64,000 nt of DNA, taken from a phage. The stretch's first letter is position 1. Each line of letters begins with the position of its first letter. The translations under genes were made by a program, and so were the position numbers. Shown here piece by piece: positions 31,767 through 60,013 of this stretch. The notes under the pieces were generated by a model, which made no database searches, was not told the origin of the DNA, and worked only from the letters and a program-made list of their open reading frames with translations. Location: NCBI GenBank assembly GCA_012178725.1, contig GCA_012178725.1_3030.1; one strand, given 5' to 3'.

Positions 31767-32237
31767 CTAGCGATAAAAACCAAAGTGACGATTAGCTTCA
31801 ACAATCTTTCTTTCTTCTTCAGACATTCTCCAGCGTAGTCCAACATCAAAATGAGCCCAGACCATCCTAACAAATGCATTTATATCTTTAATATCTTCAA
31901 TAATGAATGTTTTACTTTTAAAAGGTTGACTCGCTAATTTAACTTTATCGTCTTCAAACATGTCAAAAAGACCATATTCATGAGCTCTTTTATAGCCTTT
32001 AATAGTTAAAGCTTCAGAAGAAGAAAATGGTGAATCTGTATTCTGCAAAATATCTTCAGTATGCTTTATAATTAGAATAACATTTTCTGGATATTTTCTT
32101 TCTTTTATATCTTTAATTAAAATATCCGGATTTTCTGCTAAAGGAATAATTAACGAGCATTTTTTATCAAGTGTATTTACTGATTTACCTTCTTTAGACA
32201 TAAATTCTATTGAATAATGTTTTGCTACTTCAATCAT
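31767..32237 (-). CDS. Hypothetical protein (156 aa), mrh region
   Basis: ORF in operon orientation. Confidence 0.55.
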
Positions 32238-32394
32238 GTGATTTCCTTTTGCCTACTAATGGACCATCAGGAATTTTGTTTTCCTGGATATATTTCTCAT
32301 TTTCTTCCATCATTTTACTGCCAATTTTAAGAAGCAAATCCAAGGCTTCATTTGCTTTAGCCTTTGCCTCTTCTAACGTCATATCTTTGGTCAT
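32230..32394 (-). CDS. Small ORF (54 aa)
   Basis: Hand-called [25 protein letters not shown]...; ATGA overlap with upstream stop. Confidence 0.35.
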
Positions 32395-32594
32395 GATTTA
32401 TCACCATAGATGTCTCTCATCAATTTAAGCGCTGAGCGTTCTAATTTCTTTTCTTTCTCAGCACTAATCATTGATTTCATCCATTCTTCTGACTCGTTCT
32501 GCATTTCTTTATTTGCCTGTTCAACCCAACCATCATCAATATACATTGAGTTTGGTCTATTGAACCATTCAAGAATCTTCTTGAGAGCTTTCAT
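32391..32594 (-). CDS. Hypothetical protein (67 aa)
   Basis: ORF in operon orientation. Confidence 0.5.
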
Positions 32595-33063
32595 TTATTT
32601 TACCTAAAACAATAGTAGGAGCATCGTCAAATTTATGAATTTTTAGCAAATTTGGATTTAACTTATTCCATAAAGAGGTAATAAAATATGATAGCGCACT
32701 TTCGTCCGTAATTATAAATTTATTTCCTTTATCTATTTTCCAATCATATATTGAATCATATGAATAGAAGGATAACGGTTTATTATAATATGCTTCACTA
32801 ACATCAATATAGTTAGATTTAGTAAATGCTTGAATTGCCATAAATGGAGAATTTTGTACAGTTTCAATAATTCCGATCTTTTTAAGTTTTATTTCAACAT
32901 CTTCTGGAATTGGCATTGAAATAAAATCTTCTACTAGATACATATTATTGTCATATCTTTTATCAATCATTACTGCTACGGTAATTGGAACATCCTTAAC
33001 AAACGCCATACTAATACTATTGATAGACATTTCAAACAAAATTGCTTCCATAATTTTCCTCAA
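32569..33063 (-). CDS. Hypothetical protein (164 aa), mrh position
   Basis: Size and position similar to T4 mrh; not verified. Confidence 0.55.
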
Positions 33064-33401
33064 TCACAAGATGTAGATGAACAACTAGAATCACAAGAAC
33101 TTCCACATGAATCGCCCGCCCATACATGAATAGGAACATTAGTATCATATGAATCAGAACTAGACTGTGTTTTCTGTGTGTTAGATGATGTAGTAGGTAC
33201 TGACCAGCGCCAAGGATTTTTATAATATTCTTGGGCTTCTTCATAAGTCATAGTAACTGCTTCTACTGTTCCATCTCCCATATAAACATACTCAACTACA
33301 GTTAAAGGAAGATAGTCATTTGAAATAGGAACTACACCTTCTCCCGGAGTTGTAGAGAAAAAATCTGTAAAGAAATTTTTAAACCAATTAAAGATAAACA
33401 T
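33060..33401 (-). CDS. Hypothetical protein (113 aa) with Cys/Ser-rich C-terminal tail
   Basis: C-terminus [20 protein letters not shown]. Confidence 0.55.
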
Positions 33402-33607
33402 TACAAAAAGCCTCTTTTGAATTCGACTTGCTTCTTACCATAATCATACCGAATCTCTGCATTAAATTCGACAGAACCATCTGCGTACATCATAAATGAA
33501 TGCACAACAACTTCTGTAGACCATGGCTGTAGTTCATATTTCTTCATTACATGCCGTGAAATGATAATATCTAAATCTTCATTTGGTTTAATCCAACGAT
33601 TTAACAT
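33401..33607 (-). CDS. Hypothetical protein (68 aa)
   Basis: First gene after an early promoter. Confidence 0.5.
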   Translation of the reverse strand: MLNRWIKPNEDLDIIISRHVMKKYELQPWSTEVVVHSFMMYADGSVEFNAEIRYDYGKKQVEFKRGFL

Positions 33608-33633
33608 AGCGCTCTCCTCTATAAGATAATTTT

Positions 33634-33663
33634 ATTATACCATACTCATTTTGGAAAGTAAAC
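33634..33663 (-). promoter_or_regulatory. Early promoter (GTTTAC-N18-TATAAT)
   Basis: Reverse strand reads GTTTACtttccaaaatgagtatggTATAAT. Confidence 0.6.
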
Positions 33664-33698
33664 CATTTAAATGAAAAAAGGACTCCCGAAGGAGTCCT
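33664..33698 (-). terminator. Intrinsic terminator after soc
   Basis: aggactcc-UUCG-ggagtcct then TTTTTTCATTT on the - strand. Confidence 0.65.
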
Positions 33699-33703
33699 TA
33701 AAT

Positions 33704-33949
33704 TTATTCACCAGTTACTTTCCACAAATCTTCATTTGCAGCAATCCATTCAGTACGTTGATTTTCTTCATATACTGTAGAATATGCTGCTTTTTCTGAA
33801 GGGAATGTCTGGTAATGTGCACCAGAAATTTTGTGAACGTCAGAATAAAGAGGGAAAGCTACAGAAATTTCCTTTCCTTCAATTTTCTTATTTCCATCTA
33901 ATTTCTGCTCAAATGTTTTGATATTAACATAACCGCGAGTACTAGCCAT
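33704..33949 (-). CDS. soc: Small outer capsid protein Soc
   Basis: 81-aa ORF MASTRGYVNIKTFEQKLDGNKK..., matches T4 Soc. Confidence 0.93.
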   Translation of the reverse strand: MASTRGYVNIKTFEQKLDGNKKIEGKEISVAFPLYSDVHKISGAHYQTFPSEKAAYSTVYEENQRTEWIAANEDLWKVTGE

Positions 33950-33979
33950 GTAATTCTCCTTTTATTTAAATTACATGAT

Positions 33980-33987
33980 TATTTATA
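33980..33987 (-). promoter_or_regulatory. Late promoter (TATAAATA) for soc
   Basis: Exact TATAAATA on the - strand about 30 nt upstream of the soc ATG. Confidence 0.7.
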
Positions 33988-34032
33988 ATAAATTCTCGCG
34001 GCTTTTAAGTCGTCGTTTATTTAAACGAGCTA

Positions 34033-34551
34033 TTAATAGCCTCGGTCTTGACGAGCGAAATTTTCAGCATTTTTCAGATAATAAAGTTTAAATATTTCTT
34101 CAGCTGACATTCCAAGAGCAATAAATTTATTCATGAAAAAGTGAAATTGGTCAATCAGTTCAAATTTAATTTCAAGCTGATCTTCAGGAGATAAGTCTTG
34201 AATTTTCTTGGATTGCATTTCAGAATAACGTTTCTTCCAAGGTTTCCATACGGCAGAAGCTTCTTTTTCACCATTACTCATACCACCAAGAGAAGTATAT
34301 AGCTCGCGAGTTTCATCTGCGATATAATCGTCTTGGTTTCGCAACCAAGCAAGAACTTCTCCTGCAGTTTCAAGTGAATCAGGATGACGATTTGTTTCTG
34401 GTTTATCATTAGCCAAACGAATCTGTAAATGCCGCTGCATATCAAGCATAACCTGCAGTGGGTCAATATTGTGCATAATATTCTCAGCATATGCACGAGT
34501 TGCTTTATCAACACCTTCGATCAAATGAGCGCATTCATTAAAGTGAGCCAT
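34033..34551 (-). CDS. 56: dCTPase/dUTPase gp56
   Basis: ORF-track frame trimmed to MAHFNECAHLIEGVD (172 aa, AGGAAA ribosome-binding site); matches T4 gp56. Confidence 0.9.
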   Translation of the reverse strand: MAHFNECAHLIEGVDKATRAYAENIMHNIDPLQVMLDMQRHLQIRLANDKPETNRHPDSLETAGEVLAWLRNQDDYIADETRELYTSLGGMSNGEKEASAVWKPWKKRYSEMQSKKIQDLSPEDQLEIKFELIDQFHFFMNKFIALGMSAEEIFKLYYLKNAENFARQDRGY

Positions 34552-34622
34552 TATTTTTCCTTTCAATTCATGGGTTAGTAGATTAATTATACAATAAATA
34601 TATAAAGCAATAAGGAGGACAT

Positions 34623-34823
34623 ATGGTACAAAAATTAATGGCACTTGTTAATGCCATAAAAGGTAATAAAAAACGTATAGCTTTTACTATTTCTGCTATG
34701 GTAGGAATTTTACTCTGGAACTTTATTCTATCACCTGTTGCAATTGCACATGGTATTAATATTCCAGTAGTTACTCTTGATACATTTGTAGATTTAGCAT
34801 TTGCTTTAGTTGGGTTGATTTAA
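34623..34823 (+). CDS. Small membrane protein (66 aa), divergent orientation
   Basis: AAGGAGG ribosome-binding site 5 nt before ATG; two hydrophobic segments; stop overlaps the gene 61 stop (TTAA). Confidence 0.55.
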   Translation: MVQKLMALVNAIKGNKKRIAFTISAMVGILLWNFILSPVAIAHGINIPVVTLDTFVDLAFALVGLI

Positions 34824-35848
34824 ATCTTAGCATATTTAGATAGCCGCATTTTAGCCATCAACCCCTGGGCAATATTATTTTTCATATATTCCATAATTTG
34901 TTCAGGGGTTGCACCTTCCTTTCTAATCATATCATTAACATCTTTTGATTTCCAGGGAGATTTATCCCAAAACATAACCCTTTCTCCTGCATCAACTAAT
35001 TTAGTCATTCGCTTAATAGTGTCAGGATGACGAGGTTCATTATCTAAAACCCACACTCGTCTATCTTTAAATGGAACAACTTCTAGGTCTAATTGACCAC
35101 CCGTAATAGCTATACCATTTTCAATAAAAAGTGAATCTATAGGTCCTTCTAGAACATATACATCACCATCTTTAACTCGTTCGACTCCATAGATTTTTGT
35201 TGCTTCAGGATAAGCTTTGATGGTGATATATTTTTGGGGAGCATCTTTCTTTAATGCACGTCCTTGAAAAGACTCAGCTTTTCCATTAGCATTATAAATT
35301 GGAATAACAAGACGAGGCTCAGGTATTTCCTTTTTATATGTTCCCGGTGCTATACTATTAACTAATTTAGGCCATTCGGTTGTAAACCAAAGATATTTCC
35401 ATTTATCCTTTGGAATACAACGAGCTTTTACATATTTTATAATTGGATGGTCTTCCGCCAATTTATCTAATCTAACACATGACAGAAGAGATTTAATTAT
35501 TTTCTTCTCAGGTTGTTTAGGAAGTTCTTTAGGTTTTTCTACTGGACGACTTTTACCTTTTTCTTTTCTTATTTCAAAGATATACTCACGATATAAATCG
35601 GGTTCAAACTCCTTTAAATATATTCCGATTGGCGCATGATAGTTACAGTTATAACAATGAATATTTCCTTCATTATTATCGCCATAATACCATCCACGAG
35701 CTTTATTCTGGTCGGTTTTTGAATCTCCACAAACAGGGCATCTAAACCGTAATTTAAAAGTTGAACTATTATTTACTTGTGTGAATTTAGGTAAATGAGC
35801 TAATGCACGGTATGCAAACTCATTATCAATCCAAGGTATTGATGACAT
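34820..35848 (-). CDS. 61: DNA primase gp61
   Basis: 342-aa ORF with zinc ribbon (CPVC...CYNC) and Toprim region; length as T4 gp61. Confidence 0.95.
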   Translation of the reverse strand: MSSIPWIDNEFAYRALAHLPKFTQVNNSSTFKLRFRCPVCGDSKTDQNKARGWYYGDNNEGNIHCYNCNYHAPIGIYLKEFEPDLYREYIFEIRKEKGKSRPVEKPKELPKQPEKKIIKSLLSCVRLDKLAEDHPIIKYVKARCIPKDKWKYLWFTTEWPKLVNSIAPGTYKKEIPEPRLVIPIYNANGKAESFQGRALKKDAPQKYITIKAYPEATKIYGVERVKDGDVYVLEGPIDSLFIENGIAITGGQLDLEVVPFKDRRVWVLDNEPRHPDTIKRMTKLVDAGERVMFWDKSPWKSKDVNDMIRKEGATPEQIMEYMKNNIAQGLMAKMRLSKYAKI

Positions 35849-49805: not shown

Positions 49806-51488
49806 TTAAACCATTACAGTAAATCGACCAACTTTCTTCATTTGAAGATGCTGACCATATTCTTGCGGGTCATGGTCTTTATGTGAAATTATAAAAACAT
49901 TAGTGTTTTTCATTGAATTTATAATATTAGCTACACCTTTAATACCTTCGGCATCAAATGACCCATCAAACACTTCATCGAGTATTAATGTACTAATACT
50001 AACACCAGATACAATAGAAGCAATATCACGCCAAGTAAATAAAAGAGCAATATCAATTCGTGCTTTTTCACCTTCACTAAATGAAGCATAACTAAAATCT
50101 TCACGACCACGGGATTTAATTGTCTCATTAAATTCTTCATCTAATGTAAACACATAATCCGCTTCCATTATTTTAAGATAATGGTTAATCTGCTTATTAA
50201 ATAATGGAATGTACTTTTTAATAATAGCACCTTTAATACCAGAATCTTTGAGCATATCAGTCAAAATTCCTCTGTGGTATTTTTCCATTACTAAATTAGT
50301 TTTTGTCTTAACAATTTTATCAAGTTCTTCTTGAAGCAGTGCTATTTCATCAGCATGGTCAATAAACTCAGAAGATGCTTTTTCTATAGCCGCTTTAACC
50401 TTTTTAGCTTTATCTACCGTCGTGATTAGAGATTGCTTTTTATTGCGAATATCATTTGCCAACGACTGTTGGGTTTTAATATTATCTCGGTATTCATCAA
50501 CAAGAACTTTTAAATTATCACGGTGTGTTGAAAGCTGTTCAAACGAATGCGTACATTCAGAAACTTTATCTTTAATTTTAGAAACAACTTTATCACCGGA
50601 ACTTAATTGTGACAAGCAGGTTGGACATAATCCACCTTCGTGATACATATTAATGACTTTATTATACGAGTCAATTTTTGATTTAATTAAAACTGCTTCT
50701 TGACCGATTTTATTAAATGCATCAGTCGGGTCTTCATCTAAAACAATATTAACTAATCTTTCATTAGCTTCTTCTATTTCCGATTTTAGCGTTCTAGCTT
50801 CTTTTGCCAAATCATCATACATATTTTGAAGACGAGTAAGGTTGTCACCCGTTAATTTTTTCTGGCGTTCAACGTTATCATTATATATTTTAATTTGTTG
50901 GATAATACTATCTTTTTTAACATCAAGCACTTGGTTTTGTGAATTTAATTCACGTATTAGTGCTTTATTAAGCTTATCCATTTCAGCTAATGTTCCTACC
51001 TCAAGCAGGTCTTCCACAAGCTTTCTTCGCGCAGGGGTCGACAAACCCATGAAAGGGGTATACCCTGCTGTACCAAGGACAACAATCTGCTTGAAACTGG
51101 CATATGACATTCCGATAAGCTGTTCAAATTCTGCTTGGAAATCTTTACTGCTGGCAGATTCATTAAGACGTGTACCGTTAACGGTGATTTCGAAAACGTT
51201 CGGTTTTTGTCCTCTTTTGATATAGTACTTTTTCTCATCATATTCCATCCACAGTTCAACTAAAAGTTCTTTCTTATTTGTGCTGTTTATTAATTGACCT
51301 TTCTTTACATCACGAAATGGCTTACCAAAAAGCCCAAATGTGATGGCTTCTAACATAGTAGACTTACCACCGCCATTTCGGCCAGTAATAAGAGTTTTTT
51401 GAACCTTATCTAATTGAATGTCAACTCCATTTTGACCAACTGACATTATATTTTTATATTTTACTCTATTAAGTTTAAATGATTTCAT
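49806..51488 (-). CDS. 46: Recombination nuclease subunit gp46 (SbcC/Rad50-like)
   Basis: 560-aa ORF with Walker A GRNGGGKST and coiled coil; length as T4 gp46. Confidence 0.93.
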   Translation of the reverse strand: MKSFKLNRVKYKNIMSVGQNGVDIQLDKVQKTLITGRNGGGKSTMLEAITFGLFGKPFRDVKKGQLINSTNKKELLVELWMEYDEKKYYIKRGQKPNVFEITVNGTRLNESASSKDFQAEFEQLIGMSYASFKQIVVLGTAGYTPFMGLSTPARRKLVEDLLEVGTLAEMDKLNKALIRELNSQNQVLDVKKDSIIQQIKIYNDNVERQKKLTGDNLTRLQNMYDDLAKEARTLKSEIEEANERLVNIVLDEDPTDAFNKIGQEAVLIKSKIDSYNKVINMYHEGGLCPTCLSQLSSGDKVVSKIKDKVSECTHSFEQLSTHRDNLKVLVDEYRDNIKTQQSLANDIRNKKQSLITTVDKAKKVKAAIEKASSEFIDHADEIALLQEELDKIVKTKTNLVMEKYHRGILTDMLKDSGIKGAIIKKYIPLFNKQINHYLKIMEADYVFTLDEEFNETIKSRGREDFSYASFSEGEKARIDIALLFTWRDIASIVSGVSISTLILDEVFDGSFDAEGIKGVANIINSMKNTNVFIISHKDHDPQEYGQHLQMKKVGRFTVMV

Positions 51489-51503
51489 TTTGTATCCAAT
51501 TGT

Positions 51504-52358
51504 TCACAATGAAGAAAATTCTTTAACTAAAGCCTGTAATGAAGCCTCTATTGGATATCCATTCTTAACTAACATTTTCCTAAACATTACATGTTTAGGA
51601 CGATTATATGATATCCACAATTCATACAATTTATCTTTATTATCCCAATGATAGCCTTTTCGTCGAGATGCTATATGAGCTTTTCTAATCTCCGGATTTT
51701 TCCAACTAGCAGCTACTGAATTTGATATAGCTATTTTATATTCAGGTTTTGATAAAGCAGCACGAACAGCCTTTTGGTGTTTAATTTTATTTTCTTCGTT
51801 ATTAAACCATTCCCTTGAAGCCATTGAAATTTTTTGTTTTGTTTTAAAATTATTTAATCTTTCTTTATTATCTTTCCTATTTTTTGCTACTGAAAAATAT
51901 TTTAATGCCCTTTCTCTAGCAGCATTTCTATTTTGCGGATTTGAATAATACTGTTGAAGCCTTTTTGATATTGTGTCACTTACATCTTGTTTTATAAAAC
52001 TATATTCAGCAGCTATTAAATCAACTTCGGCTAAAGATAAATTTTTATATGTTTTTCCTGACATCATTCTATTTAAAGCATTTAGCATTTTTCCATTTTT
52101 ACCTTTTGCTAATAAGAAGTGTGCTTTAAAATGATTAAAATGACTTAAATTAACTAAATTCCATGTAGATTTTAAATATTCAGGAAATATTGATTTAGGA
52201 AGCACGTGGTGTGCTTCCGTTTTACCTGGAGTTTTAACAGTTGAATTCACAGAAATAAAATTAATGTAAGACTTGGCGTCTTCTTCACTCAACGCTAATT
52301 TTTCAACTAATTCCTTTATTAAAAATTCATCATTAATGTCAAGTTTAAAATTCTTCAC
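51504..52358 (-). CDS. Free-standing HNH homing endonuclease with C-terminal basic repeats
   Basis: 284-aa ORF with EAHHVLPKS...WNLVNLSHFNHFKAH HNH-like motif; GTG start overlapping upstream stop (GTGA). Confidence 0.7.
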   Translation of the reverse strand: MKNFKLDINDEFLIKELVEKLALSEEDAKSYINFISVNSTVKTPGKTEAHHVLPKSIFPEYLKSTWNLVNLSHFNHFKAHFLLAKGKNGKMLNALNRMMSGKTYKNLSLAEVDLIAAEYSFIKQDVSDTISKRLQQYYSNPQNRNAARERALKYFSVAKNRKDNKERLNNFKTKQKISMASREWFNNEENKIKHQKAVRAALSKPEYKIAISNSVAASWKNPEIRKAHIASRRKGYHWDNKDKLYELWISYNRPKHVMFRKMLVKNGYPIEASLQALVKEFSSL

Positions 52359-52570
52359 AAAAGATTCCTTTTAATGTATCTTTTAGACCATTCTATCATA
52401 TCATCATAATCTAAAAAGTATTCATCAAATTCAGCCATGCAAACAACACCTTGTGCTGCTTTTGATGTGATATAAATTATTCCAACATATCTAGAATCTT
52501 CTTCGGTGTAATCAATATTTGCTATGAATTCATCGTTAATGTCAAATGTCGAAAACTTCACAGTATGCAT
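52355..52570 (-). CDS. Hypothetical protein (71 aa from ATG)
   Basis: ORF-track frame trimmed to MHTVKFSTFDINDEF; N-terminus homologous to the HNH ORF N-terminus. Confidence 0.45.
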   Translation of the reverse strand: MHTVKFSTFDINDEFIANIDYTEEDSRYVGIIYITSKAAQGVVCMAEFDEYFLDYDDMIEWSKRYIKRNLL

Positions 52571-52805
52571 CCTTAATACAAGATACAGCCATATCTCGCA
52601 ATGATTTAGGTGTGTCATTATCTAAAATGTTGAAGTTAAAGGATACAGCCCAGTCAGTGCAGACCGTAACCTTTTTAATACAATTATCTTCAACCTCTAG
52701 CGGTTCAAACCAATATTCAATAATTTCTTTATGACCAATATCATCTTTTACTTCGCATTCAAAATGCTGACTCATCATAACATTTTTAAATTCATCAAAA
52801 GTCAT
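52542..52805 (-). CDS. Hypothetical protein (87 aa)
   Basis: ORF whose start overlaps the gene 47 stop. Confidence 0.5.
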   Translation of the reverse strand: MTFDEFKNVMMSQHFECEVKDDIGHKEIIEYWFEPLEVEDNCIKKVTVCTDWAVSFNFNILDNDTPKSLRDMAVSCIKDAYCEVFDI

Positions 52806-53821
52806 TGTGTTGCCTCTACATATAGCTGATTTGCATATTGAATAAGTGCTTCACGATCAGAATCAGTGATGTCTGGAATTGCATTAATATACTCTTCCAT
52901 TAATGTCTGAAGCGATTGAACTTCAACTTCTTCACTGTCATCTGACTCGACAGAGTTATCAATCTTTGACACAACTCGTAATGAATGCACAACTTTTTCT
53001 AGTTCAGATTCGAACTTCGTTAGATTTTTGTCTACTTCAGTTACTATAACACGTACTGATAGATTTGTAAAATCTTTATAGTCAATTTTTCCCTTAAATG
53101 GATATTGAATTCGACGATGCCAGGTAGTGTTGTTTGGAATAAATTCCATTCGTTCTGTTTCTGTATCAAACATCCAGAACCCGCGAGGGTCATTCTCGTC
53201 ACCTGCAGTTAGTGTCCATGGTGTCCCAATATATCTGACGTTAGCAGCCTCAGAGATAGTATGGAAGTGACCAGACCACACCTCTTTATAAGTCTTAAGG
53301 AAATCAGGTTCAAGACCGTGAGATTTCATTCCTTTATAAAAATAAAATCCATTCAGTTCCCAGTGACCAACGCAAAAAGAAGCAGATGAAGTTTTGATGT
53401 GTTCAAGAATTTCACCAGTATTTTCTTCACACATCCAAGGAATTAAATCAATCAAACATCCGTCAAAATCTACTGTAGTAGGCTTATCATATACTTTAAC
53501 ATTAGGATATTTAGCCAAAAGCTCAGTAGAAGCATTTGGAGTTAAAGTATTTTTAAAGTGCATATCATGGTTTCCTACAACAGTATGCAGGGTAATACCA
53601 GCATCATCAAGCATTTGAACTATTTCACGGGCGAATTCCATAGTTTTATGTGTGATTGCTTTTCGCACATCAAAAATATCGCCGTATTGAATCCATGTAG
53701 TAATTCCATTTTTCTTAGAATATTCTATTGCCTGTTTAATTCCATCCAACTGAATGGATTGAACCCACTCATCATCGGCTTTAACACCTAAATGCCAATC
53801 ACCTAAATTTAAAATTTTCAT
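52802..53821 (-). CDS. 47: Recombination nuclease subunit gp47 (Mre11-like)
   Basis: 339-aa ORF with phosphoesterase motifs (GDWH, GNHD); length as T4 gp47. Confidence 0.93.
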   Translation of the reverse strand: MKILNLGDWHLGVKADDEWVQSIQLDGIKQAIEYSKKNGITTWIQYGDIFDVRKAITHKTMEFAREIVQMLDDAGITLHTVVGNHDMHFKNTLTPNASTELLAKYPNVKVYDKPTTVDFDGCLIDLIPWMCEENTGEILEHIKTSSASFCVGHWELNGFYFYKGMKSHGLEPDFLKTYKEVWSGHFHTISEAANVRYIGTPWTLTAGDENDPRGFWMFDTETERMEFIPNNTTWHRRIQYPFKGKIDYKDFTNLSVRVIVTEVDKNLTKFESELEKVVHSLRVVSKIDNSVESDDSEEVEVQSLQTLMEEYINAIPDITDSDREALIQYANQLYVEATQ

Positions 53822-59542: not shown

Positions 59543-60013
59543 TTAATCATGTTTCCACACCCCATCGGTATTTGACCAAAGTCGCTGATTATCTGATCCT
59601 CGCCACAGCTTTTTAGTCGGAAGATTTTTCTCATACTTCCCATCAATAATAACATCAACATATTTAAGCATTTCTAGTTGTTTAATATCTTCAAACTTAT
59701 ATCCTGTCCACAACCAAATGCTTTTATTGGGATAAAGATTTTTTACTGTTTGAACCACAGAGTGAATCACGTCTCTGTTATCAGGATAAAGAGGGTCACC
59801 TCCGGTTATAGTTAATCCTTCTATATAATCATTATTCAAACATTCAATCAATTGTTCTAGTGTTTCACCAGTAAATGGAATACCATTTCTAGCATTCCAT
59901 GTTGATTTATTATAACACCCTTCGCATTTATGCAAACAACCTGTAACGAAAAGAACGACCCTGCATCCAGGGCCATTCACAAAATCACAGGGATAAAATC
60001 TATCGTAATTCAT
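59543..60013 (-). CDS. nrdG: Anaerobic ribonucleotide reductase activase NrdG
   Basis: 156-aa ORF with radical-SAM cluster motif CLHKCEGC; length as T4 NrdG. Confidence 0.93.
   Translation of the reverse strand: MNYDRFYPCDFVNGPGCRVVLFVTGCLHKCEGCYNKSTWNARNGIPFTGETLEQLIECLNNDYIEGLTITGGDPLYPDNRDVIHSVVQTVKNLYPNKSIWLWTGYKFEDIKQLEMLKYVDVIIDGKYEKNLPTKKLWRGSDNQRLWSNTDGVWKHD

Follow-up and report, generated by a model that had tools for sequence, protein, structure and literature searches.

The DNA analysed here is a stretch of 64,000 nucleotides (nt) from a T6-like Tequatrovirus (contig GCA_012178725.1_3030.1 of GenBank assembly GCA_012178725.1). We refer to this whole 64-kb stretch as the window, and coordinates are those of the window unless stated otherwise. 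Between genes 46.1 and 46 it carries an open reading frame (ORF) of 284 amino acids (aa), and this ORF and its homologues are called the homing-endonuclease gene (HEG) below. All genes at the locus lie on the minus strand in the order 47 (52802-53821), 46.2 (52542-52805), 46.1 (52355-52561), HEG (51504-52358) and 46 (49806-51488); the last encodes a Rad50/SbcC-like recombination nuclease subunit and is the presumed target of the endonuclease. The initial annotation had described a 284-aa ORF whose GTG start overlaps the upstream stop codon (GTGA), and this is indeed the arrangement of the HEG and 46.1. The upstream neighbour, a DUF5487 gene, had been given as a 71-aa ORF; that reading uses an upstream ATG, whereas the start annotated in T4 (a GTG at 52561 preceded by a Shine-Dalgarno sequence) yields 68 aa. 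As supposed in the same annotation, T4 has no endonuclease gene here, and its 46.1 stop directly overlaps the start of gene 46. Over 1.7 kb around the HEG the window is 99.2% identical to KIT03, PhiZZ23 and CM8, and 98.8% to T6.

An alignment of the window with T4 and T6 shows how the HEG is set into the locus. Homology is unbroken through 46.1, through the Shine-Dalgarno sequence AAGGA (52366-52370, minus strand, 7 nt 5' of the HEG start and the ribosome-binding site of gene 46 in T4), and through the GTG and the 15 nt that follow it. In T4, gene 46 opens with GTGAAGAATTTTAAACTT|AATAGAGTA, and the window ORF opens with GTGAAGAATTTTAAACTT|GACATTAATGATGAATTT. Accordingly, codons 1-6 of the HEG (GTGAAGAATTTTAAACTT, encoding VKNFKL; 52341-52358, minus strand) agree with the start of T4 gene 46 in 18/18 nt, in register with the 46.1 flank, and match 46.1 in only 12/18. 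Because homology with T4 continues uninterrupted from 46.1 into GTGAAGAATTTTAAACTT, the first six codons are, as judged from this alignment, the native start of gene 46 and not a copy of 46.1.

The insert measures 870 nt and follows gene 46 codon 6 in frame, and therefore the HEG inherits the Shine-Dalgarno sequence, the GTG start and the first six codons of that gene. At its other end a TGA is followed by a 15-nt spacer (ACAATTGGATACAAA; 51489-51503, minus strand) with a new, weak ribosome-binding site for gene 46 (GGA), and then by ATGAAATCATTTAAACTT; from AATAGAGTA on, gene 46 is again T4-like. On either side of the insert there is thus a copy of the first 18 nt of gene 46, the two copies being 13/18 identical and sharing an exact 9-nt direct repeat, TTTAAACTT, at 51471-51479 and 52341-52349 (minus strand). 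The right-hand copy (51471-51488, minus strand) encodes MKSFKL instead of VKNFKL, so that gene 46 is rebuilt by a diverged duplicate of its own first 18 nt with an ATG start. This replacement start, ATGAAATCA, lies behind the spacer and is identical in 71/71 HEG-carrying records, whereas gene 46 starts with GTGAAGAATTTTAAACT in 4/4 HEG-less Tequatroviruses sampled. The initial annotation had proposed an insertion with duplication or fusion of the neighbour's 5' end; the derivation of the HEG 5' end from neighbouring genes stands, while the flanking duplicate is that of gene 46 (GTGAAGAATTTTAAACTT...ATGAAATCATTTAAACTT) and not of 46.1. The first ATG within the HEG is not met before codon 91, well beyond the HNH motif, and the first helix of the predicted fold begins at residue 11; the captured GTG is most likely needed to make a functional protein.

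Several comparisons bear on the identity of the 284-aa protein. PHROGs places it in family 655 'homing endonuclease' (8e-45) and also matches it to an HNH family (4e-15), and tblastn finds T4-type MobD (30% identity, 2e-11) and MobE (2e-7). A family profile built from 71 homologues aligns with T4 MobB over 223 columns (hhalign probability 99.5%, E 1e-22), with the motif HH-x15-N-x8-H-x3-H in register with the HH...N...H of MobB. The catalytic core (residues 48-80, EAHHVLPKS...WNLVNLSHFNHFKAH; 52119-52217, minus strand) is marked by this alignment, by the conservation of its residues in the 71 homologues (H50, H51, H76 and H80 invariant, N67 nearly so) and by an AlphaFold model, which predicts strands 47-51 and 68-72 and helix 73-84 with high confidence, a putative beta-beta-alpha arrangement. 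Among the same homologues Pfam detects HNH (PF01844) in 12/71, all more distant ones, and NUMOD3 in 37/71; in the window protein the region C-terminal to the nuclease is predicted to be helical and gives no NUMOD match. A PDB profile search with the family gives a weak match to the DNA-binding domain of I-TevI (E 0.018), and the HEG protein on its own, compared with PDB sequences, gives no HNH or NUMOD match. Given family 655, the MobB profile match, the conserved HNH residues and the predicted beta-beta-alpha core, we conclude from sequence and predicted structure that the protein is a Mob-family HNH homing endonuclease, even though the curated profile libraries do not match it (see below). 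The HNH homing endonuclease of the initial annotation is therefore supported by PHROGs, by the MobB profile and by the Pfam HNH and NUMOD3 matches of homologues, though not by a direct Pfam or NCBIfam match.

The gene is free-standing: it has its own stop, gene 46 has its own start, no Rfam intron family matches, and the gene occurs sporadically between conserved genes. An intein or intron-encoded endonuclease was considered and rejected, since the HEG ends in its own TGA 15 nt before the separate start of gene 46, an Rfam search finds no group I or group II intron model at the locus, and a profile search finds no LAGLIDADG or Hint family in the protein. It had been suggested that this is the only seg/mob-type gene in the 64 kb, and tblastn with T4 SegA, T4 MobB and 120 family members indeed matches this locus alone. 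Over the 46 kb collinear with KIT03, the annotation of that phage has no further homing endonuclease either; for the window's first 18 kb the check was by tblastn only.

The HEG is present in 72/519 Tequatrovirus-like records (~14%), including T6, T2, RB51, PP01 and KIT03. Homologues upstream of gene 46 are also found in Mosigvirus and Gelderlandvirus. Within each genus, we compared alleles with and without the HEG over two parts of gene 46, nt 10-66 and nt 67-480. In the downstream part the two classes are 99% identical in Tequatrovirus, 99% in Mosigvirus and 98% in Gelderlandvirus, whereas over nt 10-66 (51423-51479 in the window, minus strand) identity falls to 75%, 79% and 61%, respectively. 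Between genera, HEG-carrying alleles of Gelderlandvirus (Melville) and Tequatrovirus are 82% identical over nt 10-66 against 71% downstream, and the Melville patch is thus closer to the HEG patch of Tequatrovirus than to that of Gelderlandvirus alleles lacking the HEG. The sequence TAT(AAA/TCT)AATATAATGTC-GTTGG-CAA is common to all HEG-carrying alleles, and HEG-less alleles, with one exception (the T4 type), carry TAYCARAAYATHATGTCRGTRGGYGG. Such a patch of ~57 nt in three genera is the footprint that would be expected of repeated homing with co-conversion. Because this foreign patch is linked to the HEG across three genera, the first ~60 bp of gene 46 are probably the region of recognition and cleavage, as well as a putative co-conversion tract.

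HEG-less Tequatroviruses show two haplotypes over gene 46 nt 18-64, with 99-100% identity otherwise downstream. The RB5/DalCa type (RYQ...GGNP, RB69-like) accounts for approximately 360 records, and the T4 type (KYK...GQNG), a HEG-type patch without the HEG, for T4 and approximately 70-85 records. A deletion between the two TTTAAACTT repeats would recreate the T4 allele exactly, except for two nt at positions 63-64; by its sequence the T4 allele could represent the empty ancestral site or have arisen by HEG loss, and it is predicted to resist the endonuclease. In a mixed infection, alleles without the HEG would be nicked or cut by the enzyme in the first ~60 bp of gene 46, and repair from a HEG-carrying genome would then bring in both the cassette and the neighbouring gene 46 patch. 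Alleles with the HEG would themselves be protected by the insertion, by the altered codons 1-3 and by the variant patch. From the patch, natural alleles of the RB5/DalCa type, of RB69 and of S16 are predicted to be sensitive and those of T6, and probably of T4, to be immune, and this makes homing at the locus testable by classical T-even crosses.

It might be argued instead that the HEG is not, or never was, mobile in the window phage, being either an inactive relic or a domesticated nuclease that, for example, excludes co-infecting relatives. The tight association with gene 46 in three genera could be read in this way, and independent inactivating indels show that the gene is dispensable: T2 has a 2-nt deletion, RB51 and RB68 a 1-nt deletion, and CF-SP2 a frameshift relative to Melville. 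Furthermore, E75, the family consensus within the HNH helix, is N75 in the window protein. Nonetheless, the ORF is intact in the window and in T6 with all invariant catalytic residues present, a cluster of 100% identical proteins counts 85 members, and the linkage of the flanking patch across genera is what repeated homing predicts. Exclusion and homing are, moreover, not mutually exclusive for T4 seg/mob genes, as segF and segG illustrate. We therefore regard an immobile HEG as unlikely.

The second half of the leader has another source. Codons 7-12 (GACATTAATGATGAATTT, encoding DINDEF; 52323-52340, minus strand) match codons 7-12 of 46.1 in 16/18 nt in the window (52526-52543) and in 17/18 nt in T4 and T6. 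No other site on either strand of the window exceeds 15/18, so that 46.1 codons 7-12 are the single non-self site with at most two mismatches. The 46.1 genes of RB69, Gaprivervirus and S16 share a conserved motif, F-x-[IL]-x-D-x-[FYW]; since it is kept there, F-x-I-x-D-x-F is native to the 46.1 family, and on this comparison HEG codons 7-12 derive from 46.1.

Another reading, put forward in the initial annotation, is that the HEG was inserted beside 46.1 and that its first ~12 codons are one degenerate duplicate of the 46.1 5' end. The similarity itself is far above chance, as that annotation had required of it: the first 36 nt of the HEG and of 46.1 agree in 28/36, the top score among ~128,000 window 36-mers (both strands), with 24/36 as the next best, and both ORFs start GTGAAG after an AAGGA Shine-Dalgarno sequence. 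A single copy would, however, have to explain why nt 1-18 follow gene 46 and not 46.1, why the flanking direct repeat is that of the gene 46 5' end, and why the sampled HEG-less relatives all start gene 46 with the sequence given above. Only nt 19-36 are 46.1-like, so that the proposal holds for codons 7-12 and fails for codons 1-6, and as a whole we consider it very improbable. That codons 7-12 resemble 46.1 by coincidence or through a shared constraint on initiation regions, DINDEF being native to the endonuclease, hardly deserves credence: a 'DRF' and a 'MDIN' do occur near the N-termini of two paralogues described below (between nrdD and nrdG, and in phage Kha5h), but the 'MNYDRF...' of the former was itself captured from nrdG and the 'MDIN' of the latter results from its overlapping the stop of gene 56, while the 17/18 match lies at the same codon offset with no second site of at most two mismatches in 128 kb, the Gelderlandvirus homologue starts ~10 residues later and lacks the leader, and the motif is kept in 46.1 of genera to which this comparison does not apply.

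Taken together, we consider it probable that the locus holds a Mob-type HEG expressed from a captured gene 46 start, with a leader segment from 46.1, that homes into HEG-less gene 46 alleles. On the simplest account, the chimeric leader arose in two steps. The cassette would originally have replaced the body of 46.1 downstream of codon 12, an arrangement analogous to that of the Mosigvirus homologue, which still stands in place of 46.1. The initiation regions of 46.1 and 46 would have recombined by unequal crossover, which put the cassette downstream of an intact 46.1. The two regions are alike (AAGGA, 7-8 nt, GTGAAG; 12/18 identity over the first 18 nt). Replacement and crossover may have occurred in either order, and the product would be an intact 46.1, followed by 46 codons 1-6, 46.1 codons 7-12 and the endonuclease body in one frame.

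Some observations weigh against this explanation. Pfam and NCBIfam searches of the 284-aa protein give no HNH family at E<=1 and no NUMOD; the initial annotation had named a profile search without an HNH domain as a result that would refute it, and for these libraries that is formally the result obtained. The N75 substitution mentioned above also lies within the HNH helix. The patch could be a hitch-hiking or linked marker and not the recognition site itself, and enzyme activity, cleavage site and the immunity of HEG-carrying and T4 alleles are all putative. Finally, the intermediates that the two steps imply (a Tequatrovirus HEG fused to 46.1 codons 1-12 or replacing 46.1, or a tandem 46.1) are absent from 50,697 phage records. 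Pattern scans of IMG/VR and metagenomes for the intermediates were negative as well and are uninformative: the exact T6-type left junction (a 33-nt pattern) occurs in 71 isolate genomes and has no match in IMG/VR, and because this known junction is missing there, negatives of this kind carry no weight for T-even alleles.

Homologues in the other genera resemble the window copy in lying immediately upstream of gene 46 and in carrying the same HEG-linked patch at its 5' end. The Mosigvirus homologue (10/163 records; AV112, F2) is 45% identical (AV112) and lies between 46.2 and 46, where it replaces 46.1; its first 22 nt (MTKTDYE, 7 codons) are identical to the RB69 46.1 start. The Gelderlandvirus homologue (5/16 records; Melville, CF-SP2), recognised as such by alignment, has 47 and 46 as its immediate neighbours. 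It starts with an ATG that overlaps the stop of gene 47, at the position where gene 46 or 46.1 starts in HEG-less relatives, and it has no captured codons. In both genera the HEG C-terminus extends over the start of gene 46 (in Mosigvirus the stop is inside gene 46), whereas the window ORF stops 15 nt before it. The 15-nt spacer (GGATACAAAATG) is probably a relic of the ancestral C-terminal coding region, left behind by an earlier stop, since it resembles the corresponding coding region in Gelderlandvirus (CGGATATTAAATG in Melville and CF-SP2; compare also AV112). We dropped an origin of the spacer from the 3' end of an RB69-type 46.1, which it matches less well than the ancestral endonuclease C-terminus. 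Likewise, the AV112 HEG 3' end was considered as a relic of a T4-type 46.1, and this was rejected given that the same C-terminal extension over gene 46 is conserved in Gelderlandvirus.

A paralogue with 35% protein identity lies between nrdD and nrdG in AndreasVesalius, KK4 and BF15, its start overlapping the nrdD stop. In AndreasVesalius its first 13 codons match the nrdG start in 36/39 nt, and a recoded nrdG start overlaps its stop. The window has no endonuclease between nrdD and nrdG, and the native nrdG start (MNYDRFYPCDFVN; 59975-60013, minus strand) overlaps the nrdD stop there. Like the window HEG, this paralogue has captured the start of its target, which is regenerated downstream with a recoded 5' end; unlike it, the target is another gene, the captured leader is longer and there is no second leader segment from another gene. 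Neither the AndreasVesalius nor the AV112 protein matches an HNH family at E<=1 in the curated profile libraries. An unannotated and apparently intact paralogue (30% identical) was also found in Kha5h between gene 56 and soc (1486-2337 in record coordinates), with its ATG embedded in the last codons of gene 56.

At the RNA level, an 8-bp GC-rich hairpin (GGAAGCAC...GUGCUUCC; 52198-52218, minus-strand mRNA) spans the catalytic codons 47-54 of the HEG (TEAHHVLP) with dG -13.6 kcal/mol and z -4.7. It is shared with the nrdD-nrdG paralogue within a stretch identical in 45/48 nt, though the proteins are only ~35% identical, and the homologues in Mosigvirus, Gelderlandvirus and Kha5h lack it. The hairpin might reflect gene conversion between the paralogues or act as a control element at the RNA level.

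Given the Mosigvirus, Gelderlandvirus and nrdD-nrdG cases, capture of the start position of a resident gene, with or without some of its codons, is by the sequences at hand recurrent in this endonuclease clade. More tentatively, and with slightly less confidence than doubt, we suggest that the Mob-like clade moves as a 'start-capture' cassette. Such a cassette would enter in frame at or just after the start of its target, take over the ribosome-binding site, the start codon and up to 13 codons, and end in a recoded and presumably cleavage-immune target start that travels with it between genera. If this is true, expression of the HEG is slaved to the host operon, and the chimeric leader of 46 and 46.1 codons records one relocation of the cassette by unequal crossover.

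Around the HEG, a scan for promoters and terminators gives counts at chance level, the T4 late promoter TATAAATA does not occur nearby, and RNA folding of the two translation-initiation regions reveals no significant structure. With neither a promoter above chance nor a structured initiation region, the HEG appears to be expressed from the 47/46.2/46.1/46 transcript by translational coupling to 46.1, as has been reviewed (PMC2988022) for mobE and further endonuclease genes of T4. Gene 46 itself now relies on an ATG behind the weaker GGA, 15 nt past the endonuclease stop.

The HEG is not a new discovery. It is already present in T2- and T6-type records as an uncharacterised member of a known family, and public annotation names it 'homing endonuclease', 'mobD' or 'MobD-like' in KIT03, T6 RefSeq, F2, Melville and many others. 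A literature search returned no paper describing the gene or its architecture. Its interest lies in the insertion anatomy, that is, the start-capture design together with the HEG-linked patch across genera. It offers a sequence-readable example of how a free-standing HEG gets translated and spares an essential target by stealing, and then rewriting, its initiation region. Annotation of the locus calls for care: the frameshifted RB51 copy is unannotated and several pipelines report 'hypothetical'. In RB51, gene 46 is also annotated two codons too long.

The record of phage Ac3 (GenBank OK040907.1) stands apart. It matches RB51 exactly up to the endonuclease start, after which there is a ~3.3-kb block (~31,950-35,228) with a GC content of 0.47, that of the genome being 0.35. 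The frameshifted endonuclease, gene 46 and the ~0.7 kb that follow lie in this block, which is recoded with synonymous codons: gene 46 has 75% DNA identity to RB51 and 442/442 protein identity, with 281/330 differences at third codon positions, E. coli-preferred codons and TCN/AGY serine swaps, while the 15-nt spacer is untouched and the 1-nt RB51 frameshift is kept. By its composition it looks like synthetic, codon-optimised DNA in a 'natural' phage record.

Among known systems, SegF and SegG are GIY-YIG enzymes whose 'intronless homing' was shown by experiment in crosses of T4 with T2. The window HEG is likewise free-standing, and, as proposed from the allele comparisons, it would similarly target an adjacent conserved gene of HEG-less relatives, with co-conversion of flanks and immunity by polymorphism; it differs in being HNH-type, and its homing is something that we infer where that of SegF and SegG has been demonstrated. 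The general mechanism of intronless homing has been reviewed (PMC2988022). Closer in kind are MobA-E of T4, which are free-standing HNH homing endonucleases (MobE characterised in PMC2790892; review PMC2988022). Judging from the alignments, they share a homologous catalytic and, probably, DNA-binding architecture with the window HEG, and they too lie sporadically between conserved DNA-metabolism genes. A start codon overlapping the upstream gene is common to the HEG, mobE and 5/12 T4 free-standing endonuclease genes (PMC2988022). Unlike the T4 Mob genes, the HEG occupies a locus that is empty in T4, has no Pfam HNH or NUMOD match and is known from sequence alone; its reading frame opens with the first codons of the downstream, presumed target gene, whereas the T4 Mob genes merely overlap an upstream stop. 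Finally, mobE of the Aeromonas phage Aeh1 is inserted in nrdA (PMC3045599), again a Mob-type gene within a host coding sequence with the host function kept. There, nrdA is split into two polypeptides, whereas the HEG takes only six codons of gene 46, which is rebuilt by its duplicated 5' end.

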